Shown here piece by piece: positions 3,824 through 55,217 of a DNA stretch of 64,000 bases. Position numbers and translations under genes: made by a program. Each line of letters begins with the position of its first letter. Within the stretch, counting starts at the first letter, position 1. Source of the stretch: Clarias gariepinus (Eukaryota); contig NC_071115.1 of NCBI RefSeq assembly GCF_024256425.1, positions 12,462,746 to 12,526,745 on the forward strand. Direction: 5' to 3'. Below the pieces are notes generated by a model. It searched no databases and was not told the DNA's origin. It saw only the letters and a program-made list of their open reading frames with translations.

Positions 3824-4019
3824 CCGGGTTTATTTCTGTAAAGCTGCATCCTGTAACGTTAACCTTTAACATTTCCTTCAGATAGTCGTTCTCTTTGCGG
3901 ACCCGAGCCGTTTCCTCCTCGTACTCCTGCATCATCCTGCTCACGGTGTCGAGAATCTCATTCACCGCCGCCGACAGTCTCTCACTCAGGAACACGTTTA
4001 ACTCGTCCAATTTAGTCAT
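3824..4019 (-). CDS. First coding exon of a ZNF-family gene (gene F). Encodes MTKLDELNVFLSERLSAAVNEILDTVSRMMQEYEEETARVRKENDYLKEMLKVNVTGCSFTEINPG and ends at a G|GTAAGA donor in phase 1. The rest of the gene lies beyond the window start.
   Basis: ATG at 4019-4017. The ORF track shows the same peptide inside 3795..4109. The donor GTAAGA sits at 3823-3822. The nucleotides are near-identical to the exon at 23193-23382 and the peptide is homologous to the exon at 55028-55217. Confidence 0.6.
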
Positions 4020-5214
4020 TTTACTGTTTCCCCCTATAAAAATCACTAATAGTAAACAGTTTTTTAAGTGTAGCTCGTCTACCGCGCACACACTCAACCC
4101 CGCACACACTCTTTATCTTGCTTGTTGTGACGCCGAAGACGTTAAACCGGCTGAATCCCAAAAAAGGTCGCTGTTAGATTTTAAGTGCACTACGCAGGCC
4201 ATAGAATGATGCTGTATGTACTCTTTGTAGTTTACCTACATAGGAGCAGGAAGTCATATGGAGTTCGACCTAGATTGAGCCGAAGTAAAACAACAAAGAG
4301 AACCGCCTCTACCGCCCCCTGCAGGACAGGAGATAGAAGCCGGATTCACTCAATCGTTTCAAGGCGGGAATATTGGACTGTCGTTGCGTCTCGGCGTCGT
4401 GTGTGAAAGCAACAGAGCCGGAATCGGGGTCGATTTAATTAGTGAGAGGGGGAAGACGAGATCTGTGTGAAATGGGAGAACCAACTGTGGTGAAATGGGG
4501 ATCTGACGTTTTATGATCATCAGAGGTTTAAATTACAGTAACTTGATAGTAGCTAACATGCATATATCTTATAGAGATTAGATCAGACACATCTGAAGTA
4601 CAAAGCACAAAATTTACCAAACGCAATGACATTCCCCAAGACAGAACATTTCAGAAACACAGTTAGGGATGACATCCTGGTTGTGATGTGGCATTATAAG
4701 TCAATTCACAATTTTCATTACCTGCTTCCTGTTTCCTTAATTGCTTAATTGGTGCATGACAGTTAAGCCAGTTTAAAACTACTATTTAGAGGTTTTTAAT
4801 GAAGGATTTTCATATGAAGTATTTTTTCTGACATACTGAAAACACAAGGTAACATTACAACGTGACTCATAAAACATGCTGGAAAGCAAAGGGAACTGCT
4901 TGAGCAGCTACTCTTCAACAAGTGACACTAGAAGAGCCATCTTACCTGAACTCCACGTTTACCGTGTCACTTAAAATCAGACAAAGTTCCTTGAAGAATA
5001 ATCCTTACTGTAAATTAAGGCCTGTAATTTTCATAGAATAAATATAAGTTGAAAGGAAGGCCCTGAGCTGCGATGCTGGTCAATCGAGTTTGGGTTGGTC
5101 CAATTTAGAACAAGAGCTAAATCCCTGTCTGTTCTGTGACGGGGCATTAGAATATTAGAATAGAATATGTTGGGTTTTTGTTCTTCAGGGCCACCGTAAA
5201 AATCAGAGATAAGG

Positions 5215-5290
5215 TAAGCTGCTCAAACGGATAAGGCTGTGGGTTACTAATCGTAAGGTTGGGGGTTCAAGCTCCAGCTTCTGCATTATA
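5215..5290. repeat. tRNA-like SINE-head fragment (box A / box B-like). It is not a foldable tRNA.
   Basis: It contains gctcaaacggataaggc and ggttgggggttcaagctcc, which resemble D-loop and T-loop motifs, but no proper acceptor stem is present. Confidence 0.25.
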
Positions 5291-5641
5291 ATTGATTACA
5301 AGAATTCGGCTTTGTCTATTATTGGTTAGCTTGCCAGGGCTCTGAAATAGGACCAGTTTCTGATGCCACTTTACCAATTGCTGCAGTCACTCCCAACACT
5401 AAAAAATGTTTGATATGGTATAGTGGGCATATTTGTTTAGGATTTTAGAGGGCTTTGGATTTGTGGAAAAATGTATTAACTGGGTTTGACTACTGTCTAA
5501 TTGCCCTGAAGCACTAGCTCAGACAAATAGTTATATATCTACGTGATTTAAATCGGGAAGGGGGGCATGGAAGAGATTACCACATGTGTACCAGCCTGTA
5601 GTTGTTCTGTTTGACACTGGAAACTGTGGCAACTGCAATGT

Positions 5642-5725
5642 GTGGCAATGAAAATTTCTAAGTTTTTGTGTCATATTCAATTCAATTCAATTAAATTTTA
5701 TTTATATAGCGCTTTTAACAATGGT
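5642..5725. repeat. Fragment of a common teleost interspersed repeat (ttcaattcaatt...tttatttatatagcgcttttaacaatg...cccaaagcagcttcac).
   Basis: Motif remembered from fish repeat consensi; I cannot name the family from sequence alone. Confidence 0.4.
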
Positions 5726-6328
5726 CATTGTCCCAAAGCAGCTTCACAAAAAAAAAAATTAAAGATTTTTTTTTTTTTTTTAAGAAAAGAAAATATTTGG
5801 AAGTGTGTATGTGTGAGAAAAATGTGTCTAGATAATAATTAAATGAATGAATGATGAATGAAATGTCTCTGATGAGCAAGCCAAGGGTGACGGCGACAGT
5901 GGCAAGGAAAAACTCCCTGAGATGGCAATAGGAAGAAACCTTGAGAGGAACCAGACTCAACAGGGAACCCATCCTCATCTGGGTGATAACAGATAGAAAT
6001 AACATCAAGTGTGTTGTGCAGGTGAAAGTTCAATATATCAGAAGTTGTGTAGATTCAGTTCAGCAGTAGGTGCAGAGGGCAGATGGGGTCAGATCACTGG
6101 AAGCACAGTATACAGGATGTGTAGCTCCAGCCATCATAAAGCAGAATCTAGCTGGAGCAGGTCCTTCTCAAGATGCCTTAGAAACCTTGCAGGGTTGGCC
6201 TTTGTCTACTGAAGCTGGCACAATCTCCAGATGTCTCAGGATGGGTAGAAAAATACAGAAAAGATGGAGAGAATTAGCGTAGTTGCCATTCAGGATAGGT
6301 GTACTGGAGTATGAGGTTATGGGATGAG

Positions 6329-8179
6329 TTACGCGTATGCCAGATTAAAGAGATGCGTCTTGAGTCTACTTTTGAATTGGGAAACCGTGTCTGCTCCCCG
6401 AACAGTGTCTGGAAGGCTATTCCAAAGCTTTGGAGCCAAATATGAAAATGCCCTGCCCCCTTTTGTAGATTTTAAAATTCTGGGAATTACCAGAAGTCCG
6501 GAGTTTTGTGATCTTAAGGGACGTGGTGGATTATAGCGTATCAAAAGACTGGTTAGGTATGAGGGAGCTAAACCATTTAAAGCCTTGTATGTAAGTAGTA
6601 CTATTTTGTAATTAATTCTAAATTGAACAGGTAGCCAGTGCAGGGATGATAATATAGGTGTTATATGATCACATTTTCTGGATCTGGTGAGAACCCTGGC
6701 GGCTGCATTTTGGACTAACTGTAGCTTGTTTATTGAGGATGCAGGACAACCACCTAGTAATGCATTACAATAGTCCAGTCTGGAGGTCATGAATGCATGA
6801 ACTAGCTTTTCTGCATCAGATACGGATAGGATGCTCCTAAGTTTGGCAATATTTCTAAGATGGAAAAAGGCTGTTTTTGTGATATTGGAAATATGATTTT
6901 CAAAAGACAAGTTACTGTCTAATATCACGCCCAGGTCTTTTACTGTTGAGCTAGTAGTAACAGTACATCCTTCTAAACGCAGGCTGAATTGTGAAAGCTG
7001 TTGTGTGCTGGTTTTTGGGCCGATGAGCAATATCTCTGTCTTATCTGAATTTAGTAAAAGAAAGTTATTGGTCATCCAATCTTTTATGTCCTGGACACAC
7101 TCTGTTAATCTAGACAACTTGGGTATTTCATCTGGTTTTGTTGAGATGTATAATTGGGTATCATCAGCATAACAATGGAAACTAATCCCATGCCTTCTAA
7201 TGATGTTTCCCAGGGGAAGCATGTAAATTGAGAACAGGAGAGGTCCTAAAACTGACCCTTGTGGGACCCCATATTTCACTGGCATTACATCAGACGGTAC
7301 TCCATTTAGATCTACAAAATGGTATCGATCAGACAGGTATGATCTAAACCATTTTAATGCCTGCCCCTGAATACCTATATGATTTTGTAGGCGGTCTATG
7401 AGAATATTATGATCTATGGTGTCGAATGCAGCACTTAGATCAAGTAAGACTAGTATTGAGATGCAGCCTTGGTCTGAAGCTAAAAACAAGTCGTTTGCAA
7501 TCTTAACTAGTGCAGTTTCTGTACTATGATGGGGCCTGAAACCTGACTGAAATTCTTCTAGGATGTTGTTTTCCTGCAAGAATGTGCATATTTGAGCTGA
7601 TACTACTTTTTCTAATATTTTTGATATGAACGGAAGGTTTGAAATCGGTCTATAATTTGTTATTTCATTCGCGTCCAAATTAGATTTTTTAAGAAGCGGC
7701 TTAATAACTGCCAGCTTCAAAGGTTTAGGGACGTGACCTAGATATAATGAAGAATTAATAATGTTTAGAAGTGGCTCTCCAACTGTAAGCATCACTTCTT
7801 TTAAAAATCTGGTTGGTATTGGGTCTAACAGGCACGTTGTTGATTTAGCTGAGGTGATAAGTTTATACAGCTCTTCCTGTCCTATACCTGTAAAGCACTG
7901 AAAATCTAAATGTGAAGCTCTAGGCTGAACTAGATCATGAGATGCTATTAGAGGTTGAACCTCTGTTATTTTCTTCCTTATGCTATCGATTTTTTCATTA
8001 AAGAAGTCCATAAAATCTTTACTACTAAAATGTTGTGGAGTACTCTCTGCAGGCATCTTAGGTTTTGTTAGGCAGGCTACTGTACTAAATAAGAACTTGG
8101 GATTGTTTTGGTTTCTTGCTATCAGTTGGCTAAGATGCTCGGTCCTAGCGGTTTTTAGAGCCCGTCTATAGCTGCACAT
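6329..8179 (-). CDS. LINE ORF2 reverse-transcriptase domain, 616 aa, open throughout.
   Basis: Motifs [30 protein letters not shown] and [10 protein letters not shown] are typical of L2/CR1-clade RT. Confidence 0.85.
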
Positions 8180-8660
8180 ACTGTCTTTAAACGCAATTCG
8201 AAAAACTTCTAATTTAGTTTTTCTCCATTTTCGCTCAAGGTTACGGGTTGCTCTCTTTAGGGCGCGAGTATGACTATTGTACCAAGGAGCAAGTGTTTTA
8301 TCTCTGACTTTTTAAAATCTGATGGGAGCAACAGTGTCTAATGTACTGGTAAAAATAGTACCCATGCTGCTGGTCACTTCGTCTAGATCGTCTGCATTTA
8401 GGGGTCTAATAAGTAATTGGGACAGATCCGGTAGATTACTTGTGAATCTGTCTTTAGTAGTCGGATTCATATTTCTAACAAATCGATAACGTGGAAAGAC
8501 ACAGCTAATCTGTTCTACGGGTAGAGTATATATCAGGAGGTGATGATCTGTGATATCATCACTTTGAGTTAAAATCTCTATATTAGTGACATCTATACCA
8601 TGAGATATAATTAAATCTAGTGTATGATTACAGCGGTGAGTTGATCTATTTATATTTTGT

Positions 8661-9164
8661 TTAAATTCCAAAGGAATTTAGTAAGTCCATAAATGCGAGG
8701 GCTAAAGTGTCGTTAGCATCATCTACATGAATGTTAAAGTCACCTACTATCAACACTTTGTCAGAGTTAACAATTAGGTCTGATAGCAGATGTCCAAATT
8801 CTTTTAGAAAATCGGCATATGGCCCTGGGGGTCTGTACACGGTGGCCAGAGTAAAATATAGCGCGGGTTTATTATGTATTTCATTAAGTGCAACATTGAT
8901 GACGAGCACTTCAAATGAGTTAAACCTGGGCCTTATTTTCTGAGTAACAGTGAGTACATCTTTGTAGATAGTGGCGACACCACCACCGCGACCAATTAGA
9001 CGGGGCTCGTGCTTATAAAAATATCCTGACGGAGTAGACTCATTCAGACCAATATATTCATTTGGTTTAAGCCAGGTTTCAGTGAGGCAGAGTGTGTCAA
9101 GGCAATAATCTGATACCATTTCATTAACAATAAGTGCTTTAGGCGTAAGGGTTGAGAAGTCCAA
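8661..9164 (-). CDS. LINE ORF2 APE-type endonuclease domain, C-terminal two thirds. The N-terminus is lost to 5' truncation (an in-frame stop lies immediately upstream).
   Basis: DTLCLTETWL, GRGGGVATIY and the VGDFNIHVD motif. Confidence 0.75.
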   Translation of the reverse strand: MDFSTLTPKALIVNEMVSDYCLDTLCLTETWLKPNEYIGLNESTPSGYFYKHEPRLIGRGGGVATIYKDVLTVTQKIRPRFNSFEVLVINVALNEIHNKPALYFTLATVYRPPGPYADFLKEFGHLLSDLIVNSDKVLIVGDFNIHVDDANDTLALAFMDLLNSFGI

Positions 9165-9277
9165 ACTTTAGAGGTAGACTTCGATTACTTATTTATAATA
9201 AAAATATAATATAAAGGCTGTACCCATAAAGTAATGTTATACAGTATGTGAACAACATTCTTTTGTTTGTTTAAGAC

Positions 9278-11950: not shown

Positions 11951-13840
11951 AGGATAAGTGATATAGAGAATGAGTTACTGAAAGAGTACTGATTCAACCC
12001 TTAGACAAGTCTGTTTGAGAGCCACTAAAGAAAGACAGCTAAGCCTGGATGAGGAACAACAACAGTAACTAAAATATTCTTAGAACTTAATGCGATTATT
12101 TGTGTGTTTCAGAAAGCACTTATGGTGTAAACTGACATTTGCGCCAGATTCCATGCCCCATTACAAACCTCTCACAACTAAACCATGAACCCAACCAAAA
12201 TGGAAACATGCTCCTGTGACTTCTTTTGGTAACACCGGATTGGTTGTTTTTGCTTATTCGATAGGGTTTCCTATTTGGTTTGAACTGCTTTCACCATGCC
12301 AAAACATATCTTTCATTTCAAGTCATCATCTTGTATTTTAACTCCTTAAGAGTTGAGTAGCACACTTGGTTTCCCAATACATATTTATTTTAATCTTGCA
12401 CAATTTTTTTTACACAATCTTTAGGTACATTCATGTACAATAATATGTGAATAATACAAAAATGTAACTGTACTTGGAAGTGTTCATTGTTTCAAAATAT
12501 TAAATTAAGCAAGTTATAAAATCCATAACAAATAATTATGTACCTAATATGAATTATTACAATGTATATATCTATATAAAACTTAATCACATGCTTTAAA
12601 AACAGTGTCTTTGTTTTTTTTTACTTAAAAACACGCTTCTCTCTTCTTTGCGGTCAATTATTCTGGCACTGTGAAAATTCCTTACACTTTCTGTATGTGA
12701 AACAAAAGCATTGAAAAAAATTATGTGAAAGTTATTCAAGGCCTGATAATACATGAATTAATCAGAAACACTTGTACAAAATACCCACTCTATCAAATCA
12801 GCCAATCTTGTGTCAGCTATGCATAAAATCATGCAAATACAGACCAGCAGCTTCGGGAAATATTTACAACAAATCATCAGAATTGCATGATTGTTGGTTA
12901 GTGTTTCTTAGCAACAGGTTCTAACAGGGTTATAACATGGTGCATTATTATGGCATTAATAGATGGGTAAATTATAGAACACGGTCAACAATACTCACAT
13001 AGGCTGTTGCGATTGATTGGTATTTAAGGGCACAAAGTAGGCTAAGAAAGCATTCCCTACACATCTACAGTATCTGCCTCAGCACAGAGCAAGATTCATC
13101 GGACATGGCTATGCTTTGCACTGTCCACGTTTGGTAAGTGTCCTCTGCAGCCTCAGATTCCTATTCTCGGTTGACAGAAGTGGAACCTGACACGATCCTC
13201 TGCTGTTGTAGCACATCTAGCTCAAGGTTTGATGTGTTGTGCAATCTGAGATGCTTTTCTGCTTACCGATATTATATAGAGTTGTTATCTGAGTTACTGT
13301 AAACAGTGCTTCATCAGCTCAAACCATTCTCCACTGAACTCTCTCATCAACCAGGTGTTTCTGCAGTTAGATCAGATCAGGAGACATAAAAAATACTCCA
13401 AACATTCCAATCTGGCACTCAGATATTACATTGTCCCCCATTCTTATGGTTGATATGAACATAACCTGAAGCTTCCGGTGTGCATCTGCCTGATTTGTAA
13501 ATTTGCTGAATTTAAGTCTTTTTAAAAATAATCCCACAAACTCCATGTATTATTCCATATACCCCTTGTTAAGAAGCACTTAAAAATACCAAATTTGTAT
13601 CGATATTCTTTTAGTTTTTAATGGGTAGTCAAGTTGTATTAGCTACATAACATTTGTGCTGTTTCTTTACCTCTGTATGTTGAGTCAAACTCTTTCCTCG
13701 AAATGGTCGAAAGGCTCTGATGTACCTGTCGAACTCTCCGCCACATGCTGCGTGTAAAATGAACAAAATGTTAAATTCTTCCAGCAACTTTATGACGTTG
13801 CACTGAAATAAAATATAAATAAACTGGCTTTTTGTGCAAC

Positions 13841-13938
13841 CTGCTGCTGGAGCTCACACTCTGCTGGATTCTCCCCACTGGAAGACGTTTTTTTTCGTCT
13901 TCTTGCTTGATCCTTGTGAATGCTGAAATGTTGCTCTT
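13841..13938 (-). CDS. Locus A finger-region exon 3 (phase 1 acceptor cctcag|AA, donor CAGCAG|GTTGCA). Paralogous to 27688-27776.
   Basis: Polypyrimidine-AG acceptor at 13939 and GT donor at 13840. The peptide EQHFSIHKDQARRRKK... is collinear with the copy in locus B. Confidence 0.45.
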
Positions 13939-14015
13939 CTGAGGAATACACAAATGCTGTAAAACACTGTAAAAACTATTAAACGAACATATTAGGAATG
14001 GTTCCTCAGACTCAC

Positions 14016-14099
14016 CATGGTGGGTCATTCTGTGGTTTCGATAGCGATATTTCTGAATAAACCCGATATTACACTCGCTACACCAGTAAGGCCTCTCAC
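14016..14099 (-). CDS. Locus A exon encoding one C2H2 finger, (G)ERPYWCSECNIGFIQKYRYRNHRMTHH(G). It is 84 nt with phase 1 at both ends.
   Basis: Acceptor ttttgcttttctag|GT at 14100 and donor CATG|GTGAGT at 14015. Paralog at 27848-27931 has identical length and phase. Confidence 0.65.
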
Positions 14100-14231
14100 C
14101 TAGAAAAGCAAAATTATACTGGCACTAAACAACACCAATTTGTTATAAATTTGTATTATTTTTTATTTTATTATTATGTTTTAAAATTTTAAATAATATT
14201 TTTGTGGAAATATCTAATTGCTCATAAAGAC

Positions 14232-14397
14232 CTGTATGAGTGTACTCATGTCTGCGTAGGTGGTATGGACTGCAGAAGGTGGCGCTGCAGTGCTGACAGA
14301 TGTGCAGTTGTGTGTTGTGAGCTAAACCCTCCTCGTCATCTGAAGGATTTTCGATTACCGTTGACTTTGCATGTAAACAGACACAAATTCTAAATGA
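14232..14397 (-). CDS. Locus A exon encoding ...ICVCLHAKSTVIENPSDDEEGLAHNTQLHICQHCSATFCSPYHLRRHEYTHTG (a C2H2 finger). The donor ACAG|GT is in phase 1. The 5' boundary is uncertain: either an AAG acceptor at 14398 or a TAG acceptor at 14390.
   Basis: Reverse-complement translation is collinear with 28027-28190, including the ICVC(L/F)H(A/T)K peptide. The plus-strand track ORF 14202..14393 is its antisense. Confidence 0.5.
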
Positions 14398-18150: not shown

Positions 18151-18745
18151 TTGTGGACATATTGTACAACTTTTCCTGCTCTGCATACAGCGCACAAAGT
18201 ACCATGTAAGCAATCAAGGTCACATTCAACAACGCTCGTTCAAGTTCATCTGAGACATGTATGAAGCTTATAGGTTTAGGTTTAGTTCATTTATAAAGCA
18301 CATTTGTAACAGCCGCGAGACTGACCAAAGTGCTGTACCTCCACATCAACACATCATAAAAAGGCTAAAAGTACACGATACACACAAAAACTACATACTA
18401 GGCACAGTAGAGCCTAGTGGGCCAGGGAAAACAGATGGGTTTTTAAAAGGGATTTAATGGTCAAACTAGGAGCCATTCGGATATCAAATGGCAAGTCATT
18501 CCAAAGACGAGGCAGAAGCTTTAGAGTCTCAGCAGAACGTTAAAATGCATTTTTGCATGGAACAGGGGTTGTGGAATTTGACCCTGATTAATTTCATTGT
18601 ACTTGCTTGTAGTGTACAGAGCAGGAAATTTAGAACTACAAAGACCTATACTACTGTATTTACAGTATATTCACCTCAAAGTTAGACTCTGACTATCCCT
18701 TTAATCTCATGAAGGTAAAAGATTACATTTTACTTGATGTCTTAC

Positions 18746-19615
18746 TTGAGTTTCAACATGAGAGCTCCTCCTCCTATTCTCTACCGTGTATCCGTGTTCA
18801 GCGTCAGTTTTCTTGTCTTCACCGCTGCTCGTTTCAGTCTGATTATATAGAGGGGCGCTGCAGGGTGTTATTTTATGCATGTGGTCATTTCGGAGCAAGC
18901 TGGCATCTAGAGTAGGATTACTTTCTGATTCAAGATCAGCAAGTAGATGTTCACCGGCCCAGCCCGAATCTTCACAAGGAGAAGAACCTGTAGACTCTGT
19001 ATTAGTGTAAAGCTGTGCTGGAATGTTACCTGTGTCTGATACATCTGTGCTAACTGATTCAGGACTAGGATTTTTATGTTTGGCTCTACATAACCTATCC
19101 GAGTTAGGCGAACTTACTTGATTAGCTGTTAGTAGTTCTTGACTTAAAGGGGTACCTGTCCGAGAAGGGATGGTACCGGACACGGGTTTAGCTTCATGAC
19201 TACATGGATATTTATGCTTGCATATCTTTACATGGTTAGCGATGCTCTTACTGCTATATAACCCAAGACAATAAATGCACTGCACATAGTCTGTATTAGA
19301 TCCAGCTGTGGTATGCCACTTAGATGACACAGAGGTTCTACTCATACCCACGTCTTTGTGCAAAAGGTTTCCTTTGCTCTGTAGGAGATCCAGCAACTGT
19401 TTCCTTTCCTTTGACTTCTTGTCATAACTAAGAGCCTTGGCCACCTCTGGTTCTTTAGCATGTGTCGATAAAAGATGCTGTTTCATTCGGAGGGATGGTT
19501 TCCTACAATATAAGCAATAATGTTTCTTCCTTAGCTTTAATCTGGATTTTCCTTTCCTGGTTTTTACACTCCAGACATCAGATATAGGTGAACCTGTCTC
19601 CAGATCAGGAATCGG
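18746..19615 (-). CDS. Locus A large exon, 290 aa. Carries paired atypical zinc-binding motifs, CLYCRKPSLRMKQHLLSTH (CX2CX10HX4H) and CIYCLGLYSSKSIANHVKICKH (CX2CX12HX3C), and ends ...RRRSSHVETQ|GTAAGA.
   Basis: Acceptor ccttgcag|CCG at 19616 and donor CAA|GTAAGA at 18745. The ORF track shows the same peptide inside 18707..19621. It is paralogous to 28591-29277 and 33565-35202. Confidence 0.65.
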
Positions 19616-19852: not shown

Positions 19853-20022
19853 ATATTTATCTGGAGGCTCGTAGTCAGGATGAGCAGGATATAGAGGGTC
19901 AGGTTGCTCTATTTTAATGCGAGTGCTTTCTTCCTTCAGCTCTGGATTTTGGCACCAGCTCTCACAACTCTGCGGTTCGCGCTGTAGGTTCGACGTATCA
20001 TCCTGCTTTTCAAAGGACACAC
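19853..20022 (-). CDS. Locus A exon 2, (G)VSFEKQDDTSNLQREPQ...DYEPPDKY. It has a phase-1 acceptor matching the phase-1 donor of exon 1.
   Basis: Acceptor tccctcacag|GT at 20023 and donor TAT|GTATGT at 19852. Lies within track ORF 19823..20020. Confidence 0.55.
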
Positions 20023-22862: not shown

Positions 22863-23192
22863 GGCTGAAGGGCCATCACTTGCAAAACCATAAATATTTG
22901 TATATTAGCTTTCGTTACGTCATAACGCATTAACACGCGCAGTGACAGTTAAATAACGAACGTTAAACAAGCTTTAAAACACTGCGTCTGTAGAGACCCG
23001 TGAACGTGCTATATAGTAACCCTAAGTAGTACACTCTGATAAATATCTCAGGGTCTGTAAACAATTCAGACATTTCAGCATGTATGGGCCTGCTAAGTAT
23101 TAAAATCCTGCCTAATATCAATACGGGCAGTTTACCTCCGCGACCACATTAGGACTGTTTTCTGCATTTCAGTCTAAGATTTTTAATCATAC

Positions 23193-23382
23193 CCGCGTTT
23201 ATTTCTGTAAAACTCCATCCCGTGAGCTTTAACATTTCCTTCAGATAGTCGTTCTCTTTGCGGACCCGAGCCGTTTCCTCCTCGTAGTCCTGCATCATCC
23301 TGCTCACGGTGTCGAGAATCTCATTCACCGCCGCCGACAGTCTCTCACTCAGAAACACGTTTAACTCGTCCAATTTAGTCAT
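23193..23382 (-). CDS. Locus A first coding exon, MTKLDELNVFLSERLSAAVNEILDTVSRMMQDYEEETARVRKENDYLKEMLKLTGWSFTEINAG, ending at a G|GTATGA donor in phase 1.
   Basis: ATG at 23382. About 170 nt are more than 97% identical to 3841-4019. Within track ORF 23149..23400. Confidence 0.65.
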
Positions 23383-24099
23383 TTTACGGGTTTTCTTCAC
23401 GTGAAGCTGGGAGAAACACGTCCATCCGCTCCTCTACTACGCTCTCTTGCAGTGACGTTAATCCACGCTAAAGGCTGAATCCCAAACCGCTCTGTCTTCA
23501 GCTTTACGGCTCACTTCGAAGCGTGCACGAGACATTCATTCATTCCCTTTGTAGTGTCGATATGTAGGAAACACTAAGCTATTTGATAGTTATTCCAGAT
23601 ACTCTGCTGCCACCTACTGGACACGGTGGGTTCAGGCAGCTTTTCTTGAAAGACTTGTGACTGCAGTCGCTGAATAGTTCAGCTTTTGTACCTGACTGAA
23701 CCTCTAATAATGAATATTAACTTAAATGCATCTTCTGTTATATTAAACTTCCAGCCTTCTAACACACAGTAGGACTGTAAAACAATCCCTGCTATCTGTT
23801 ATCACCAAAAAGAAAATAGGTTCCCTGTTGGTTCCTCTCAAGGTTTTTTCCTATTGACATCTCAGGGAGTTTTTCTCGATTTTAATAGATCTTTAGTCAC
23901 AGATAAAGCCTTCACTAGTCCTGTGTTTATGGCACATGTTAGCAATAAAACTTAAACCACTGACATATGAAGTGAATAACATTTATTGTTGCAATACAGG
24001 GGCACCTCTCAAGCGGTGAAATATCTTTGGCAGCAAGTAAACAGGAAGTTTAAAGTGTTGGAAGAAGTGACAAATGGGCAAGGAACTGAGTGATTTTGA

Positions 24100-27687: not shown

Positions 27688-27776
27688 CTGTAGATGGAGT
27701 TTGTTCTCCACTGGGTTCTCTTCACGTTTTGTGTGCCTTCTTGATGGATCCTTAAATTCGCTTGACTGTGTCTCTC
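27688..27776 (-). CDS. Locus B finger-region exon 3 (acceptor ttcttcag|GA, donor CTACAG|GTTTCA). Paralog of 13841-13938.
   Basis: Splice sites read directly; the peptide ETQSSEFKDPSRRHTKREENPVENKLHLQ is collinear with locus A. Confidence 0.5.
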
Positions 27777-27847
27777 CTGAAGAACAAAACAAACCCTGTG
27801 AAACCCCGTAAAACTAGTTCATGAACGTATCAGGACCTTGGACTCAC

Positions 27848-27931
27848 CATGGCGCCTCATTCTGTGATTTCGATAGCGATATTTCTGAATGAAGCCTACA
27901 TTACACTCGCTGCACCAGTAAGGCCTTTCAT
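27848..27931 (-). CDS. Locus B C2H2 finger exon, (D)ERPYWCSECNVGFIQKYRYRNHRMRRH(G). It is 84 nt with phase 1 at both ends.
   Basis: Acceptor ttttgtag|AT at 27932 and donor CATG|GTGAGT at 27847. Confidence 0.65.
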
Positions 27932-28026
27932 CTACAAAAGCAAAACAAAACTGGTACTAAGCACACATTATAAATTAACAACGGCATGTTTTAAGGGGAA
28001 TAAATATTTAAATTCCGGTAACTGAC

Positions 28027-28190
28027 CTGTGTGAGTGTATTCATGTCTGCGAAGGTGATAGGGACTGCAAAAGGTAGCACCGCAATGCTGACAAATGTGC
28101 TGGTTTGAGCTCTGTGATACACTCTGTGCTTCATCCGAAGGGTTGTCCTTTATCTTTATTGGCTTTGTATGGAAACAGACACAAATTACA
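28027..28190 (-). CDS. Locus B exon encoding ...PVICVCFHTKPIKIKDNPSDEAQSVSQSSNQHICQHCGATFCSPYHLRRHEYTHTG. The donor ACAG|GTCAGT is in phase 1. The 5' boundary is approximate.
   Basis: Within track ORF 27968..28201. Paralog of 14232-14397. Confidence 0.5.
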
Positions 28191-28590: not shown

Positions 28591-29277
28591 CCGAGCTCGA
28601 ATACGAGAGCTCCTCCTCCTACATGTATTCCCTAGCACATGTTCTTTCCGGCCGCTTTGATCAGCGACAGCCGTCTTGTCCTCGCTCTTGATGGTTTCAC
28701 TCTGATCATTGGCTGAAAAACTGCAGGTAGTGCTTTCGGGCTCATGATCGATTCCGACCAAGCTAGTGTCTGGAGTCAGATCAGTTTGCGATTCAAGATC
28801 AGCAAGCATTTTTTCACCAACCAACCCCATTTCTTCTGTGTCTGAAACATCAGTGCTAACAGATTCAACATTTGTTTTTTCCCATTTGGAAGTACATCTA
28901 TTCGAATGAGCAGATCTTGCTTGATTAGCTGGTAGAAGCTCTTCACTTGAAGGAATACACATATCCACATCTTTGTGCAAAAGGTTTCCCTTGGTCTGAA
29001 GCAGATCCAGCAGCTGTTTCCTTTCCTTCGACTTCTTGTCATAACTAAGAGCCTTGGCCACCTCTGGTTCTTTAGCATGTGCCGATAGAAGATGCCGTTT
29101 CATTTGGAGGGATGATTTCCTACAATATAAGCAGTAATGTCTTTTCTTCAGCTTTAATTTGGATTTTCCTTTCCTGGTTTTTAAACTCTTCCAGACATCA
29201 GCTATTTGTAAACCGCACTTCATCTCAGGAGCTTGGGAAGAAACCGGTGATGAATTTTTTCCTTCGGGTGATGTCTG
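28591..29277 (-). CDS. Locus B large exon, 229 aa. Contains CLYCRKSSLQMKRHLLSAH and AKEPEVAKALSYDKKSKERKQLLDLLQTKGNLLHKD and ends RRRSSRIRAR|GTAAAC.
   Basis: Acceptor ccccatag|CAG at 29278 and donor CGG|GTAAAC at 28590. About 93% nucleotide identity to 19381-19590 over ~200 bp. Confidence 0.6.
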
Positions 29278-31575: not shown

Positions 31576-33564
31576 AAACTTTATGGCCCTTTTTAGAAAT
31601 TAAGACGAGTCTCCTGAACGTGTACAAGCAAAAGAGCGTGAGAAAAATACAGTACCATGAAAAAGTCTCAAGACACCACTCATTTTGACATAGATTAAAA
31701 GTATGTAGATTAAATTAGAGAAATAGGATCAAATTTTATACAGGAACTGGCTACAAAGTGCCTAACGATACAATTTAAAAACTGGTAACAACCTAAGCAG
31801 CAACCTCATTTCTCCTCTCGTTAGTTCAAACTTAGCATTCACCTTCACCCGTATAATTATTACTGGCCAGATCATCTGTCATCATTTGCAACTGTTTGTC
31901 ACTGGTTTATGCCTTAATTTTTTATTTATTTTTTTTAAAGCGTGAATGATTCATAGGTCACTGTGTGGCTTAACAAACAAAACCATTCCTGTTCCTCAAG
32001 ACTACATTAAACAATACATGAAACTCTGGTTCTTTAGTATGAAGAAATCAGGGGTGGCTCCAGACTTCTGCACAGTACTATACATTCCTTTCCTTTTGTT
32101 CTCCTATTTCAGGATTATTCAAGGTTGTTTTTTCTTATTTAAAAAAAAAGAGAGATATTTTTTCCCTATTGTGATAAAATATATGAGCAAATCCCCTCCC
32201 CAGTTTGTTGCACAACTCTGTTCTCTGTGGAACATAGCTCAACTGTAGGGCATTTACATAAGACACTCAGATGGAATATTTAGACATGAATTAAAATAAC
32301 GCGGGTTTAAGGCATGATAAAATGCATCTTCTGAGGGGTATTTCAGCAGAAGCATTGACACATGCACACTTTGGGAGATCTTTGACCTTTGATTGGCCTT
32401 TAATATTATAAACAAATGATGATGCAGCTGCTGCATACCCTTAAAACAAAGTCTACCCCTAAATTGTATCGAATAAATACAGTCTGTAGAGAAAATAACT
32501 GATTCAATCCCAATTAATTCATTATCAGCCTGTAAGGTGTCATTTTAACTGATAATTGAGCTTTAAAGTCAACAACAGTGTGGGTTAAAAGCATGTTAAA
32601 AAAACTAACAGTTAAACAAGGTTGTGTAACAATAAAAGCATATGATCCGGAGAGATCGGTCACTGTGCATCAGTTTTAGTAATGGCAAAGGCTCTACATA
32701 AAAAAGTGCTTTCATTTGACCAGCATGCTTTAATAAGTTATTCTTGGCTTGCAATAGACTAGTGTTTCCCAAATTTTGTTCTTTGAAGCCCTCTGCTTGC
32801 ATTCAAGAAATGTTGCACCCCCTTCCAGCCAACAAACCAACCCACCCCATCCTAGCCAAGCTTATGTACACAAACAACAAAAATCTATATTTTTAAATAG
32901 TTTTCTATGCAGAAATTTAATACATTTAATATTTAAAATGTTTCTTATTTAGCATGTTTAACATAGCCTCAGAGCAGACAAAGGCTTGTGCACGCCCTAT
33001 GATTTTTGGTACCCTTCTGAGGAGGGCATGGATGCCAGGTTGGGAACCATATCAATAGACTACCATGTGTGGCTTCTGCATGCTTGGATTAAAAGCCTGC
33101 ACCAGCCCTTCTTGGATAAGATTTTATACCCCTGTTCAGATTTATGTGTTCTGCAGATTAGGACCTCTGGTGCTCAAACAGGGTAATTGCATTAGATATG
33201 TAATTGATAAAATGCTGATTTCAAAGGTATAAACTGCACATTTTACCAATGCAAATCATAACATTTTTGCTTTGACACGATGACACGATGCATCTTTACA
33301 CCCCTAACTGCCACACTTCACTTCATGTTTTAAGATTCTTTTTGTATCATCATGAACAAAGACCAATTGTGCATTAGAACCCCCTAGCCATTGAAAGTCT
33401 ATGAAAGCTTTTTCCACTCTTACATTATCGAGTACCTTTGGATTACCCCAAAAACCCTGGCACGGTACCACCCATACGAAATCCCTTAAAATAATACAAC
33501 GGAGTACACGATTAAACCTTATTTATTCAAGATACATAATAAACAATGAACACACTAAGTGTAC

Positions 33565-35202
33565 CTGTAAGGGGTCACTTTGTCGTCTTCTCTTTGTGTC
33601 CCTGCTTCGACTCTCCCCTCTCCTCTTTAATGCTGTTTTGTAATTTAAGTCAAGAGGTTTCATTTTGCTGTTTTGACCAGTAGTACATTTACCACCCTCT
33701 TCTGTATCATCTCTGACATGACCTTCACATTCAAACTGCTTTTCTGCTGCACTGGATCTTTCTGCATCGGTTGTAACGAACTCATTTGCAGTTAGATAAC
33801 AGCTTGACTCTATGTCAGGGGCTCTATGTTCACCATTTCCAAAAACTTGACTGAAGACATTTTCTGTTTCTGGATTAGCACTTTCCTGTGCATCACTGGT
33901 CAAAACGTTTGCAACTAGACATTTCGTTGACTCTAAATGAGGATTACTTTTGGCAGTCCCCTCTGATACAAGCTCTGGCATCACTGAGGCAGTCTGCTCT
34001 GGTTCTGAATTAAAGCTAAGACTTTGCTCAAAGTCCACACTTATACTTGTTGATGTGTTAGTCCAGTCTGATTTAAGATTAGTTGATGGTTGTGAATTAC
34101 TGCTGCCAGTATGTATAGGGCTCAATGATTCTTGAGGAGCAACATGTTTTTTTCTGCAATCTAATGTAGAAGAACTCTGGCAATCTTGATTAGTCTTTAG
34201 TTGTAGATTGTGGCTCCCAATGTCTGGACTGCAAGTTTTCAAATTAAAAATCTCCAAATCTTTTTCTACAATGGCTTTTGTTCTAATAAGGGGAAATGTA
34301 AAATTTTGATTTTCAACAAGAACTTCCTGTACTGTGCTGGGGCAAGACTCCTGCCCTGGAGTGTCAGTATACTCTATTGCGCTGTCAAAAGATTCTATAG
34401 TGAGTGGTCCAGAAGATTCAAGATTCATCATTGCCGAGCTGTTCCCAGTGAATAAAATGGACCCTTGATCAGGGATCGGGTTTACCTCAGCACTGAGAGT
34501 GCCTGAAACAGCAGAAAGTGAATATAAATAGTGTGTAGTGTGGTATTGAGCTTTAGGTGAAGGAAGATTCTCAGACTCTGGAATGACTTGTTGGACAGAA
34601 CCGTGGAAGGTATCTTTGACAAGATTCCCAGATTCTGGATTGGAGGTTTTCTGCACTAAACTTTGCCTTGATCTTGGGCTAATGTTGGGAAGATCTGTAC
34701 TGCTCCCAGGTTCAGGCAGAACAGACACTTTTAATTGTTTCTGCTTACATATTAGAGCATGTTTCCAAAACTGCTTTCTTTGATAATATCCCTGGCAAAA
34801 AATACAATGGACGAGGTCGTCGTCTTTTTTGTTCCTAGGAGTGTAATCGTTTTTCAGTTTTTTGTTACTGCAAAGAAGGATCAAACGCCTCTTCCTTTCT
34901 TCTAAAGTATTGCTAAAATGCAAAGCTTCCATAACTTTAGGTTCCTTCGGGTGATCATGCATGAGATGCAGTTCGATTTTTTCACAAGCTTTCCCACAAT
35001 AACAACAGTGCAGAGTTCTTGTACCTTTCTTTGATTTTCTGTCAACAGTCTTTAAGTCTGCTCTGGAACGTCGACTAGTTGCACTGTGTGTGTCTGGGCA
35101 ACATCCTGATAACCTTTCTGTACTGACATTAATCAGTGTCGAGTCGCTTTTTCCTGAGATTTCAGAGTTGTCTGTTGAATCCACACTACCTACTTCTGAT
35201 GT
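33565..35202 (-). CDS. Gene C large exon d, ~546 aa. It is serine/threonine-rich, carries CCYCGKACEKIELHLMHDH and CIFCQGYYQRKQFWKHALICKQ (the same paired-motif architecture as loci A and B), and ends RRRQSDPLQ|GTACAC.
   Basis: Within track ORF 33523..35262. The donor is at 33564. The acceptor is uncertain: either AAG at 35203 or CAG at 35196 with a different phase. Confidence 0.5.
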
Positions 35203-35441
35203 CTTCAGAAAGGGAAGGTTTAAAAGAATACAACAACAACAAAAAAAAAATGTATGGATCAATATTCTTTCTAATTAAATATATACAAGGCTCAAGATAT
35301 ATTACTTAAAAGAGTTATGACAAATTAAGCCCAGGTCACTGTTACAATTGTCATCCTATATGACCACATATTGAACAATGACAACTATTTTAAAATTTTG
35401 CTAGTTTTTGTAGCACTCTTTCCTTTGTCAGAGTCGCATAC

Positions 35442-40187: not shown

Positions 40188-41006
40188 TTAAAAAAGAGGA
40201 AAACTCAATCTTTTCTTTCTAAGAAGTTCGTTAATTCTATCTCTTATTTGCTTCTTGTTGCGGGCTGTGGGTTGGAATTTCTTAGCAACAGCATTAGAAA
40301 TTGCTTGACGCAGATTGGAAGGCAGTGCGTTTTTTCCCCTGGAACCATCATAGTTCACCGAACCTGCCCATTTCTGGTAAACATTGTGTGGAACCAACCT
40401 TTTAAATAAATCAACAGCAAATCGATCTACCCTTGGTCTGCCATCTGGTCCAGCTGAATTCAGATATAGTTCTTTCTCTTGCTCGATGGACACATGATTT
40501 AAAGTCACATCAGGTATGATCACGCCATGTATGAGAGACCGGCGTACAGGATGATGAGAGCGCGAAGCGTTTCTTGGTGTTTCAGGCAATCTCGAACAGA
40601 AGGATGAAACTGCTGAATGTTCTTGTGAGTTAGGCATTAAATGTTCCAGAACTGGTGAACTGTGAAAGTCGAGTATCGAACCAGTTGCCATCTGTAGGTT
40701 AGCAACATTTTCCGGATCAATCTCTACTTTAACGGCATGGTCGGTCAGAGCTGTTGAGGCGGCTGGTGGAAAGCCAAAATCTTCATCGTCCAAGCGTCCG
40801 ATGGGTGGTGTGGAATGGTCTCCAGCGGGGTCATGGATTAGAGCCTGATCTGCTGTTGGCAGATGTGACGTTATCTTCTCCTTCGAACCTGCTTCCAAGC
40901 CACTAACCAATCTGGCCTCCAAATTCAGACGGCTACGTGTCACAGCCCGTAACTGCTCCTTTGAACTGCTGGCTACAGCGAGGTGCCGACGGGTGATCAT
41001 TGTAGC
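40188..41006 (-). CDS. Terminal coding exon (includes the stop codon) encoding a ~272-aa segment with a C-terminal BEN-like domain (...RFAVDLFKRLVPHNVYQKWAGSVNYDGSRGKNALPSNLRQAISNAVAKKF...).
   Basis: Acceptor ttttatag|GCT at 41007-41010. Track ORF 40188..41000. The BEN assignment is from remembered family features (an aLLxxlF block, tG..g..K.aL(D/P)...v.aI motif); no database search was run. Confidence 0.5.
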   Translation of the reverse strand, partial: ATMITRRHLAVASSSKEQLRAVTRSRLNLEARLVSGLEAGSKEKITSHLPTADQALIHDPAGDHSTPPIGRLDDEDFGFPPAASTALTDHAVKVEIDPENVANLQMATGSILDFHSSPVLEHLMPNSQEHSAVSSFCSRLPETPRNASRSHHPVRRSLIHGVIIPDVTLNHVSIEQEKELYLNSAGPDGRPRVDRFAVDLFKRLVPHNVYQKWAGSVNYDGSRGKNALPSNLRQAISNAVAKKFQPTARNKKQIRDRINELLRKKRLSFPLF

Positions 41007-43162: not shown

Positions 43163-44715
<1,553 letters not shown>

Positions 44716-48034: not shown

Positions 48035-48058
48035 GTGTGTGTGTGTGTGTGTGTGTGT
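48035..48058. repeat. (GT)n microsatellite
   Basis: gtgtgt... run. Confidence 0.9.
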
Positions 48059-51360: not shown

Positions 51361-51396
51361 ATAATAATAATAATAATAATAATAGTAATAATAATA
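51361..51396. repeat. (AAT)n microsatellite
   Basis: aataataataat... run. Confidence 0.9.
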
Positions 51397-51710
51397 TCAT
51401 CCATTGCTTATCAGTTAATGCCTACATAGTAATCACTAGAGATGGGGGAAATTGAGTTATGAATTGCGATTCTTTTGTGTGTAGAATGACGTACCGCCAC
51501 ACTGACTCCAAAACAGATTTTTAAAAAACAATTTTTCCACTTACAATAGAGATAAACCAGTCGATCGGCCAGTCCTTTTCTAAACATCCTTTTCTTCACC
51601 TGCATCACTATTGTGATGTCTTAATTATCAATTATAATTAAATATGACTAATTTTCATTCTTTTTCATTATAATTATTGTTAATTGCCGCTTTGTCCTCC
51701 AAGCCCTTAC

Positions 51711-52097
51711 CTTTGTAAGATGTGATCCGCTGTCTGCTCTGTCAGTGTCATCCTGTACATTTTGTTCATCTTGATTCAAAATTGGCTTTCTGTGGGTCTT
51801 CATATGGACCGCCAGCCGTGATACATTAGTGAAGGCCTTGTTACACTGCAGGCACTGAGCTGTCTTGGGCTTTTCTCTTCCTTGTTTCGCTTTAAGGCCT
51901 ACAGGCTTGGCAGCACTGGTTTCAGAGAGCTTACTGCTGCTGCTGGTGTGTTCACTGGTTTCATCTGATGCCTCGCTTGGCTCTATTTCAGGGCCAGAGG
52001 GGCCAGCCCTTGATGAGATACCGACGTTAACCCATCCAGTACTCTGCTCTGTCTGCTCCGAGCTGTCAGACAGATCCTCTATGAATTCTCGTGATGT
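51711..52097 (-). CDS. Gene D exon 3, 129 aa. An acidic/serine-rich linker followed by one C2H2 finger (AQCLQCNKAFTNVSRLAVHMKTH).
   Basis: Acceptor cattcccatgtag|ACA at 52098 and donor ACAAAG|GTAAGG at 51710. The length is exactly 387 nt and phase is 0 at both ends. It is not seen as one ORF in the track because it is shorter than the cutoff after splitting. Confidence 0.65.
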
Positions 52098-52358
52098 CTA
52101 CATGGGAATGAAACAATTATTATGTGAATGTTGCACGGACTCAAATAGGGTATCTTTCTGAGATCTACCCCAGATTAGTCCTGGTCTGCCAAGACAATCT
52201 ATTGATGTACTAATTGTTTTTTCACAATGGTTTTTGGTTTTTTATAGCCAAATATTAACACAAAAGATTTGCTTCATGTCACATCAACAATGACTTTACT
52301 GCATTTCATCATTCTCTTGTATGCATTGATGTTAACTGAAGCAAAAATATGCACATAC

Positions 52359-52813
52359 CTTAGAAAGGCCACGTAACTTCTTCTTTCGCTTCTTGTCCCC
52401 GTAAAAGCATGTTTTACGCCTTCGGTACGTATAGGGCCTCTCGGCCGAGTGGACACGCATGTGAAACATCAGTCTCTGCTCCCTTCCAAACACCTTACCA
52501 CAGTCCGGGCAGGCAAAGGACCTCCTCTGGCTCCTGTTTCTTGCCATGGTGGACAGAGTAGGGTCAAAGTCTAGAGGAGCCATATAGCTTTGTGCCGAGT
52601 CCCATACAATACCATCAGGAACACTGGCATCTACAGGGGCACTGGTACCAGGATAAACCATTTCCATATCGGTAGTGCATACTGATGCTGTGAGACTTGT
52701 GTCAGGTCCATATAAAGGGCAATCAGAGGCGTCGACTGGCTCTGTTTTGATAATTAGGGATTCTAGTGTTAGTGTCTCTGTCAGACTGGCCTCACCTGGG
52801 ACAGCAGTGGGAT
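52359..52813 (-). CDS. Gene D exon 2, ~151 aa, with one C2H2 finger (FACPDCGKVFGREQRLMFHMRVHSAERPY) followed by a basic tail.
   Basis: Acceptor ttttgttatttctatgccccacag|AT at 52814 (phase 1, matching the exon 1 donor) and donor TCTAAG|GTATGT at 52358. Track ORF 52332..52835. Confidence 0.7.
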
Positions 52814-55027
52814 CTGTGGGGCATAGAAATAACAAAAGATAAAATAAAACACATTTAAGTCACTTCATGCTCAGCTACTTCTCGTAACAAAAAAACTCTA
52901 GAATTCAAGAATGCCCATGTAATATAAGAGTGTACACTAGGGGGCAATGTTTCGTTTAATAAACCAGAACATACTCGAACAAAATGGTCAAAGAGACAAA
53001 GAGCATTCTTTTGAGCCAAAACAGAGGGTTTGGGGTCTCACTGTAAAAATAATTAAAAGAAGCCAAGATGGGTTTAACTTTGGGTTGAAAATGCAGACAA
53101 GAAAAAAGAAACACTTACAAACAGAATTCCCACCTAAAGTGTATTTATGATTGAAGACTTCCCTCCCTCACACTTGTACATATGCCACAATATCAACAAT
53201 ATGCTGCTTCTCCTTTCTTAATAAAAATTGTATGCACCATTCTCTATTTTATGCACCTCTAACAACCATTCATACTTCTATTTATCTATTTATGTTCAAT
53301 TCAAATGCAGAATTTCCCATTATTTTCAAATGAATCTGCACCCATCATTGCATTTATGATGAAGTCCCTTACTAGATCATTCTTCCACTACCAGGGATTA
53401 AAGTGTCAAGATGAGAGAGAGCTGAACTCAAAGACATCTTTGCATTTTGGCAAACAGACTCAGAGTTGCCAGTCTACAGGCAGGAAATGCACGCAAATTC
53501 AAAATGCTTGTACATAATATAGAGACGCACGAACCTAAAACACATTCAGATTTAAATATTTAATATCCAGTAGTCGTGCCCCTGCTGTCTTACATCACTC
53601 AGAAAGAGAGGCCTGAAGAGCTTCACTTTTTAAACACCAAATTACTCTGGTGTTTAAGATATATTGAAAGTAATCCAACAATAAGAAAAATAAAGAATTA
53701 AATTCATCAAATAATTATAAAAATAATTTGTTAGATGCATACCAAAAGTATTGTTTGAGTTTTAATAAGAATATGTATTTATTTATATTTTAATTTAAAG
53801 AATCACAATAAATGTATAGTTTAGTACAGTTTACATATTTCATTTGGGTCTGTTTGCATTTTGTGCAAGATTTAGTGAAAACCACAGAACCATGGGTCCC
53901 TAGAATGTTATACTAGAAGACCGGAAGCAAAAAGAACAGGGAGACACTTACAGCCGGTGCCAAAAGGTGCCCAATCATTCATTAGGGATAAGTGAGATTT
54001 AATGTTTATTTATTTAGGTACTTCATATTTTTCTTCACTTAAATGTTTTTTCTAAATGTTTTGATGGTTTTAATATGTAAAAATATAATGATAGTGTTAA
54101 TAAGTGGTAATATTGGTAATATTTTTGAGTGTCTGGAATGGATTATCTAAATAGGGAAAATGCGTTATGCAATACGAAACGTCACCTTAAGAATTTGCCC
54201 CTGATTAAATTCGTATGCCGAGGTACCGGTGTATATTTTAATGCCTGAATGTTTAAACATAGATTTAAATATTTATTTAGTTAATATATATATAATTACA
54301 ACATGGCAACACCCCATCAAAATATATTTTTACTTTTATATATAATGGCATGTGCATGAATTATTCTTTATAATAGTTCTGGTTTTGTGCAAATGTAACA
54401 ATGTTATGTTAAATATTATTAAGGTATTTATTTTATAGCTTTACAAACCCTATAAAGCATTTTGTGTGTCTGATTTAATGTAAACTATGTGCGGAAATAT
54501 AGGGCTAAAAACTATTATCCTTGATTGGGGAAACTATCATTAAAGACAAGTTAATAAATGTATTATAACTGCACAATTAATAAGACCGTAAGTTTTCTCC
54601 TAACCGCCAAAAAGGTGGGGGGGACCGTATGAACAAAGGAGTCATGTGATTCATGGAAAAGAACCGACTCACATGAACGATTCAAATCCGACACCGTTAT
54701 TTAGAAGCTAAAACGACACAACAACAAGACGATATCACGTCGTTACCATTGGCTTCAGGAACAATGTAATTAAACGTTTTTCGTGACTCTGAGTGGAATA
54801 GTGCAGGTTATAGTGTGCGTTAGATGAGGGCCGGCGCGCATTGTGCAAAAGCCGGACTGTAACCCCTCGTGCAGAAACGAGCTAATAATAGCAGAAAGAG
54901 CTAGCTTAACGCTGGCTAAACATTAAAATAATAATTCTGTAACAATTAGGGAGCGCGCTGGTGGTTTATGTCACAGGCTGAGCTTGTAAAGGGAGACAAA
55001 ACGCCGAGCTGGCCCCCTGCTCACTAC

Positions 55028-55217
55028 CTGGCCAGTCGGTCGGGTTTTCGCCCTCCATCCAGCGGAGCCTCCGTCTGAGCACCTCGTTCTCTTTGCGCGC
55101 TCGCACCGTCTCCTCTTCATACTCCAGCACCGTGCCGCCCACCATCTCCATGATCTGCTCCACCGCCGCCATCAGCCGCTCATTCAGAGCGCGGTGCAAC
55201 AGCTGCAGCTTGGTCAT
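55028..55217 (-). CDS. Gene D first coding exon, MTKLQLLHRALNERLMAAVEQIMEMVGGTVLEYEEETVRARKENEVLRRRLRWMEGENPTDWPG, ending at donor CAG|GTAGTG in phase 1.
   Basis: ATG at 55217. It is homologous in sequence and structure to the exons at 3824-4019 and 23193-23382. Track ORF 54966..55217. Confidence 0.65.

Follow-up and report, generated by a model that had tools for sequence, protein, structure and literature searches.

An apparently unnamed N-terminal helix module in teleost DNA-binding proteins, with signs of exon-restricted gene conversion, at a Clarias gariepinus locus

Why should three minus-strand exons within 64 kb of the genome of the catfish Clarias gariepinus encode much the same N-terminal peptide, and why are two of them nearly identical when the DNA around them is not? 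The stretch analysed here, called the window, comprises 64,000 nucleotides (NCBI RefSeq assembly GCF_024256425.1, contig NC_071115.1, positions 12,462,746 to 12,526,745 of the forward strand). The exons are named after the genes that they would head: the gene A exon (4019-3824), the gene B exon (23382-23193) and the gene C exon (55217-55028). A sequence-only reading of the window had taken them for a lineage-specific zinc-finger (ZNF) gene family. The encoded module instead proves to be pan-teleost, and A, B and C are three unlike genes rather than one family. The account that explains the locus best, and that we consider fairly likely as a whole, is that the peptide is an unnamed pan-teleost N-terminal helix with a role in oligomerisation, that gene B is a chimera and that gene conversion has been restricted to the helix-coding exon.

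The three exons have a common anatomy. Each starts with an ATG on the minus strand and ends at a phase-1 GTA donor (GTAAGA in A, GTATGA in B, GTAGTG in C), as the sequence-only reading had proposed, and the lengths of 196, 190 and 190 nucleotides for A, B and C are all 1 modulo 3. Copies 1 and 2, those of genes A and B, encode MTKLDELNVFLSERLSAAVNEILDTVSRMMQ(E/D)YEEETARVRKENDYLKEMLK..., and copy 3, that of gene C, encodes MTKLQLLHRALNERLMAAVEQIMEMVGGTVLEYEEETVRARKENEVLRRRLR...; common to the three is the pattern M-T-K-L-x2-L-x3-L-x-E-R-L-x-A-A-V-x2-I-x3-V-x6-Y-E-E-E-T-x-R-x-R-K-E-N-x2-L-x3-L. Searches of the window with tblastn (all three peptides) and with a family hidden Markov model (HMM) on the six-frame translation found exactly these three copies and nothing further better than E=1. 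Against the family HMM they score 85-91 bits (E 1e-25 to 1e-27) with the match starting at Met1, which places them in the MTKL/MSKL family as defined here by profiles A2 and A3. The split codon had been expected to yield a P/A-G ending in every copy; it does so in gene B (Gly, G+GT), and after splicing gene C has Asp instead (G+AT).

The earlier proposal that these are paralogous first exons of ZNF genes is borne out by gene models of related catfishes. NCBI models P0015, P0017, P0024 and P0030 begin with the same exon and are collinear with the window, and polypyrimidine-CAG acceptors at 20022 and 52813 leave the reading frame open. The gene B exon aligns with residues 1-65 of P0015 and P0017, and the gene C exon, from the zgc:66474 orthologue, is 98% identical to residues 1-63 of P0030 from Hemibagrus. 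The best matches come from Tachysurus, Silurus, Hemibagrus and Pangasius. We therefore read the three as the first coding exons of three separate, adjacent minus-strand genes. All three copies are single exons running from an ATG to a phase-1 donor, and those of B and C continue into exons with C2H2 fingers. The gene A exon is the sole part of its gene within the window, and that it leads to DNA-binding exons is known solely through zf-BED orthologues.

How far does the module extend beyond this locus? An exhaustive profile search over 1.84 billion representatives (50% identity) returned 900 representatives at E<=1e-3 and 181 at E<=1e-10, with the match at residues 1-60 in nearly all of them. 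Among the strongest matches, about 45 carry a source name, and all of these are teleost; no non-teleost member was seen among the strongest matches inspected. The named matches cover Siluriformes, Cypriniformes, Characiformes, Gymnotiformes, Gonorynchiformes, Clupeiformes, Anguilliformes, Albuliformes, Osteoglossiformes, Salmoniformes, Esociformes, Osmeriformes and many acanthomorphs. Genera represented include the elopomorphs Anguilla, Gymnothorax, Synaphobranchus and Albula, the osteoglossomorph Paramormyrops and the clupeiform Denticeps. The sequence-only reading was thus right that many predicted teleost ZNF proteins begin in a similar way, and the peptide is conserved far beyond the locus.

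Behind the module stand C2H2 arrays, zf-BED domains (by Pfam scan) or no Pfam domain; one tail is known by its source name to be a BEN domain (P0147). Many entries are orphan open reading frames (ORFs) of 65-90 amino acids that open at the ATG and read on past the donor into intron sequence, and the module is therefore generally a self-contained first exon. Neither the three window peptides nor 35 family members matched any family in Pfam-A (2025 copy) above threshold, and KRAB, SCAN and BTB were absent even among their matches at E<=1, as had been supposed from the sequence. The module thus appears, from these sequence comparisons, to be a large pan-teleost family, apparently unnamed, that heads DNA-binding proteins, for the most part those with C2H2 arrays.

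Some database entries carry names that mislead. Module-bearing proteins are called 'TSC22 domain family protein 1' (P0218, Dissostichus) and 'cell shape-determining protein MreC' (P0215, JGI), and P0116 from Osmerus, which also holds the module, has the source name 'trichohyalin-like'. Several long models hold two to six module copies and are probably fused neighbouring genes.

What kind of structure does the peptide form? An AlphaFold2 model built on a 60-sequence alignment is a single uninterrupted helix over residues 3-57 (mean pLDDT, the predicted local distance difference test score, 90.7). Column hydrophobicity is strongest at a period of 3.5-3.6 residues. Within residues 30-54 the core positions V30, Y33, T37, T40, N44, L47, L51 and V54 follow the canonical a/d heptad, with N44 present in 30 of 35 sequences, and the N-terminal half presents a broader hydrophobic face (L4, L7, L11, L15, A18/V19, I22, V26, V30). 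An acidic patch, E32-Y-(Q/E)-E-E, is conserved. The module is accordingly modelled as a long amphipathic helix of about 55 residues, whose C-terminal half would be a leucine zipper with a core asparagine (...E-N-x-x-L-x-x-x-L...).

This architecture recalls the TSC22/DIP/Bun family (PF01166; structure 1DIP), whose domain is likewise a helix, some 50 residues long, in which a hydrophobic 'box' precedes a zipper with a core asparagine. In TSC22 proteins the domain lies close to the C-terminus, and it is not known to be fused to zinc fingers or to occur together with a DNA-binding domain. The module could nevertheless be a true member, its exon captured from a TSC22D gene. PF01166 is indeed the commonest Pfam match, found in 19 of 35 members, and an hhalign comparison with TSC22D1-4 and Bunched (sequences entered by hand rather than drawn from database records) gave 81.5% probability over 49 ungapped columns, as against 5.4% for a bZIP zipper control. 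In that alignment the motifs (R/H)-L-M-x-A-V-x-E and E-N-x-x-L line up. The best Pfam score, however, is 24.6 bits (E 2.3e-5 to 2.8e-5) against a cut-off of 30, and 16 of the 35 members, like the three window peptides, have no TSC22 match at E<=1. A profile search of PDB sequences returned weak coiled-coil matches at E>=0.03, with the TSC22-family dimer 1DIP among them at E 0.11. The fish module further differs in being N-terminal from the initiator Met, encoded by one dedicated exon and fused to zinc-finger regions. Capture from a TSC22D gene is conceivable on this evidence, and we regard it as doubtful.

We prefer to see the module as an oligomerisation device. A TSC22-like zipper would let DNA-binding proteins form homodimers, heterodimers or higher oligomers, a role akin to that of SCAN, BTB, ZAD or DUF3669 in other zinc-finger proteins. 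The same helix may also serve as a docking surface for cofactors. Taken further, docking could be its main task, and the module would then be chiefly a transcriptional effector, the teleost counterpart of KRAB or FiNZ, recruiting a corepressor, for instance a TRIM protein of the TIF1 family. Like KRAB and FiNZ, the module is N-terminal, is encoded by a single exon and is associated with C2H2 arrays, and the acidic patch E32-Y-(Q/E)-E-E has a parallel in the glutamate enrichment of both (PMC10547256). Yet the Pfam search gave no KRAB match at E<=1, and the published KRAB-like residues (A25, L27, Q29, L37...) misfit the module consensus. The predicted single helix of 55 residues, with its heptad spacing and core asparagine, has TSC22, a dimerising zipper, as its nearest family. 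A mainly effector role is on balance unlikely, though conceivable; the two roles are not mutually exclusive.

Several points weigh against the account favoured here. For the splicing of the three exons, the basis is the gene models of orthologues together with splice sites and reading frames that agree. The case for oligomerisation draws on a monomer model and on sequence periodicity, and a cofactor-recruiting effector domain would account equally well for the N-terminal placement and for the acidic patch EYEEET. None of the 35 members reaches the gathering threshold of PF01166 (30 bits), coiled-coil profiles are prone to spurious similarity, and the TSC22 sequences given to hhalign were entered by hand. 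As to the name, Pfam-A and open-access full texts hold none for the module, InterPro, PANTHER and subscription journals lying outside that scope; full-text queries with gene names, with consensus peptide strings and with TSC22 plus teleost C2H2 brought nothing useful from the open-access literature.

A bolder version would make the module an undescribed, teleost-wide TSC22-like zipper that is the commonest N-terminal partner of teleost ZNF factors and wires hundreds of DNA-binding proteins into a network of homodimers and heterodimers, with conversion keeping the zippers of A and B identical. We offer it tentatively and think it rather improbable. If true, the module would be the fish counterpart of SCAN, KRAB or DUF3669, and the products of the two genes, one with BED fingers and the other with C2H2 fingers, would stay compatible partners.

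Against the known N-terminal modules of ZNF proteins, the helix stands apart. To our knowledge, teleosts are without KRAB-ZNFs, and FiNZ is the sole named fish-specific ZNF partner domain. As described by Wells et al. 2023 (PMC10547256), FiNZ is 28 amino acids long, is reported as unique to cyprinids and has a separate exon that precedes the one for the fingers. Of the 'KRAB-like' domain of actinopterygians, few residues are listed and the text gives no sequence (PMC9101882, PMC11603059). Both resemble the module in being fish-specific N-terminal sequences of C2H2 genes. The module, at about 55 amino acids and with a pan-teleost range (eels, mormyrids, salmonids, catfishes and acanthomorphs), is set apart by FiNZ's description; compared likewise by description, the listed residues of the KRAB-like domain misfit its consensus. 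SCAN, BTB/POZ, ZAD and DUF3669 are lineage-restricted modules that precede finger arrays and have the same presumed job, but none of them appears among the Pfam matches and no sequence relation is seen. SCAN, BTB and ZAD are globular folds, whereas the fish module is a predicted single helix. DUF3669, a coiled coil from L1 ORF1p, trimerises KRAB zinc-finger proteins (bioRxiv 10.1101/2025.03.01.640934), and is best seen as a functional analogue of the module, not a sequence relative.

Hundreds of teleost nuclear proteins, zinc-finger and BED proteins among them, begin with this helix; that Pfam has no model for it is an annotation gap in fish transcription factors. Defining it would improve gene models, given the orphan ORFs, the fused models and the misnaming as 'TSC22' or 'MreC', and it gives a testable hypothesis, that of zipper-mediated partner choice. 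The locus is also a compact case of chimeric gene birth, probably by tandem duplication, and of concerted evolution within one protein module. Genes A, B and C themselves are ordinary annotated loci; what makes them of interest is the apparently unnamed helix and the restriction of conversion to it.

Why, then, are two of the copies so alike? Exon 1 of A and exon 1 of B differ at 2 positions in the first 156 coding nucleotides (98.7% identity), and past codon 52 at a 6-nucleotide indel and 6 mismatches within 34 nucleotides. In the window self-comparison, blastn aligned 3811-4024 with 23180-23387 at 92% over 214 columns, and the similarity ends about 5 nucleotides upstream of the ATG and about 13 beyond the donor. 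The rapid decay of identity in the flanks that the sequence-only reading had described is thus confirmed. Its figure of more than 97% identity over some 170 nucleotides holds for about 160 (from -5 to +156) and fails for 170 and for the whole exon. That reading had left two causes open, very recent duplication and gene conversion, and the comparison with other catfishes decides between them.

The first 156 nucleotides of exon 1 were compared in the window species, Tachysurus and Silurus. A and B differ at 2 of these positions in the window, 2 in Tachysurus and 10 in Silurus, whereas orthologues differ at 15-24 of them between species, many of the differences being synonymous (for example ACT/ACC, TTG/TTA and GTC-CGC/ATA-ATG). 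In each of the three species, species-specific changes in the exon core are common to both paralogues. For the 120 nucleotides upstream, the last 34-40 nucleotides of the exon and the intron, similarity is highest between orthologues, and the 3' end of the exon carries gene-specific markers (V-T-G-C-S in A, L-T-G-W-S in B). The gene order C-B-A is kept in Tachysurus ichikawai (L004) and Silurus meridionalis (L005); with the order and the flanks conserved in both, the duplication must be old.

A very recent duplication without conversion would account for 98.7% identity over 156 nucleotides. In Tachysurus ichikawai and Silurus meridionalis, however, both copies occupy conserved C-B-A positions. 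Orthologues also resemble each other more than paralogues do in the flanks and in the last part of the exon, and the core changes are species-specific and shared by both paralogues. A recent copy would also take in its flanks, whereas here the similarity ends a few nucleotides from the tract. Synteny and orthology-following flanks in these two catfishes lead us to reject recent duplication, to which we leave very little chance. The near-identity of A and B is instead read from these alignments as repeated gene conversion over a tract of about 160 nucleotides, in which paralogues are closer within a species than orthologues are, the tract is bounded and the flanks follow orthology. The tract covers 3864-4024 in A and 23227-23387 in B, both minus strand, from -5 to codon 52, between an unrelated 5' flank and an orthology-following 3' part of the exon. 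The order C-B-A is older than the divergence of at least three lineages of catfishes, and after the duplication some 160 nucleotides of the two exons have been homogenised repeatedly while their surroundings diverged. Closer paralogues than orthologues, sharp tract edges and flanks that follow orthology are the usual marks of concerted evolution by short-tract conversion. The difference here is that the tract takes in no more than the stretch of one exon that codes for the module, some 160 nucleotides, in genes whose C-terminal halves are otherwise unrelated.

The same comparison bears on whether the exons are genes at all. Of the codon changes in the exon core between the window and Silurus, 10-12 are synonymous and 3-5 non-synonymous; change between species is mostly synonymous, and the helix peptide is therefore under purifying selection. 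Were the exons fragments of a repeat or transposable element (TE) consensus, or chance ORFs, such a bias would not fit, and nor would three copies per 64 kb that are each syntenic elsewhere and each head an annotated protein. DUF3669 and TE protein families are absent from the Pfam matches of family members. Nothing was found in direct support of a TE or chance origin, beyond the presence in the window of an element resembling a long interspersed nuclear element (LINE) at 6329-9164 and the precedent of DUF3669 as a TE-derived coiled coil. On the synteny, the codon changes and the Pfam matches, we give it next to no credence.

Two further observations concern the sequence around the converted exons. 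Logan contig L003 (SRR30889361) joins, at 330-982, 108 nucleotides that match the copy A 5' flank without a difference with an exon and intron that agree with copy B at 99.5%. From its A-specific flank to the first A/B difference the distance is 37 nucleotides, too far for phasing at an assumed k of 31, and the contig was not used; it is probably an assembly artefact, though it might conceivably reflect a longer conversion tract in another individual. Upstream of the ATGs of A and B, at about 4120-4165 and 23450-23490 on the minus strand, lies a shared motif, TTTGGGATTCAGCC ... (A/G)CGTCAC(A/T)(A/G)CAAG. The motif also occurs at both genes in Tachysurus, and it may be a promoter element that has been conserved since the duplication.

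If A and B are so alike at the start, why are the rest of their proteins not? Gene B extends on the minus strand from 23382 to about 13820 and has two C2H2 fingers. NCBI models of its type that start with the helix peptide come from Silurus meridionalis (P0015, 516 amino acids), Tachysurus ichikawai (P0017, 511) and Pangasius djambal (P0024, 543), and the first two are collinear with the window over exons 1, 2 and 3 and the terminal region. Exon 2 lies at 19853-20022, with the acceptor ttcaatccctcacag at 20022 and an approximate 3' limit from tblastn; the junction of exons 1 and 2 reads ...FTEINA-G-VSFEKQDDTSNLQ... (...FTEINA-G-VSFEKQDD...), in agreement with P0024. Exon 3, at 18740-19615 with approximate limits, is paralogous to gene C at 28627-29277 and carries an unnamed Cys/His module. 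The terminal coding region, about 13820-14376, holds the C2H2 fingers at 14236-14298 and 14017-14082 and possibly an internal intron.

The two halves of gene B have different relatives. A protein with an A-type head from Salminus (P0029) is 60% identical to P0024, of B type, over residues 1-122, which correspond to exons 1-2, and the two are unrelated beyond. In the window self-comparison, exons 3-4 find their paralogues in the final exons of gene C, with 88% nucleotide identity between 19339-19610 (B) and 28956-29230 (C) and 70% between 13885-14389 (B) and 27724-28187 (C). Gene B is thus a chimera, with exons 1-2 of A type and exons 3-4 of C type. Its arrangement is what a tandem duplication that broke within C and within A would yield, namely the order C, (A5'+C3'), A.

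The Cys/His module, which has no Pfam match, occurs three times on the minus strand, at 18740-19615 (gene B exon 3) and at 28627-29277 and 33523-35262 (gene C). Its motif is ...K-K-H-Y-C-L-Y-C-x-K-x-S-x-R-M-x-Q-H-L-L-S-x-H-x-x-E-P-E-V-A-K-A-L..., followed about 60 amino acids further on by V-Q-C-I-Y-C-L-G-L-Y-x9-H-V-K-x-C-K-H. It is also found behind the helix module in a Paramormyrops protein (P0106).

Gene C, with scattered C2H2 fingers and a product of about 1,700-2,200 amino acids, runs on the minus strand from 55217 to about 27724. Hemibagrus 'zgc:66474 isoform X3' (P0030, 1677 amino acids) is collinear with the window from 55217 to 27724 in thirteen blocks, and its scattered single C2H2 fingers agree with the motifs that a pattern search finds there. 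Exon 2 to the last exon (52813-27724) were placed by tblastn with P0030, the acceptor at 52813 and the C2H2 motifs. The blocks after exon 1 are 52813-52344, 52097-51708, 48990-48787, 47451-47236, 46460-45888, 38239-38024, 37940-37707, 36797-35361, 29277-28627, 28174-28016, 27944-27834 and 27777-27724. The acceptor ttctatgccccacag at 52813 yields the junction ...NPTDWP-D-PTAVPGEASL..., in agreement with the orthologous protein. Between two P0030 blocks, an ORF at 35262-33523 would belong to a longer isoform; Tachysurus has it in the same place, with 57% identity over 579 amino acids, and its inclusion in gene C agrees with the 2,207-amino-acid product annotated there.

For gene A, the orthologues are 'si:dkey-93n13.2' in T. 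ichikawai and a 304-amino-acid zf-BED protein at the same position in Silurus. Orthology is based on the 5' flank (L001 9699-10199 against window 4339-3815) and on gene order downstream of B. With the A-type head of Salminus P0029 also followed by a BED finger, gene A orthologues are taken to be BED-finger proteins.

Other elements lie in and around these genes. Upstream of gene C, a five-finger C2H2 ORF occupies 59548-60498 on the minus strand, and the family HMM detected no fourth helix exon upstream of it in window positions 60499-64000. In L002 (GCA_977066305.1, a cyprinid-like locus where gene C exon 1 matches carp 'Zgc:66474'), 5743-6030 and 7148-7972 hold an equivalent ORF after a divergent helix exon (MSRLDKLHSNLMKRM...), and the helix exon of the five-finger ORF may lie beyond the end of the window. 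An ATG-initiated ORF of 270 amino acids at 40188-41000, with a weakly BEN-like C-terminus (Pfam E 0.07), sits in a gene C intron on the same (minus) strand and might represent an alternative exon, a gene nested within gene C or a relic. A link between it and the helix-plus-BEN protein of Albula was rejected, as the two show no similarity. Between B and A, also on the minus strand, two ORFs of 616 (6329-8179) and 167 amino acids (8661-9164) look by eye like LINE reverse transcriptase and endonuclease, and make up much of the extra distance between the two genes.

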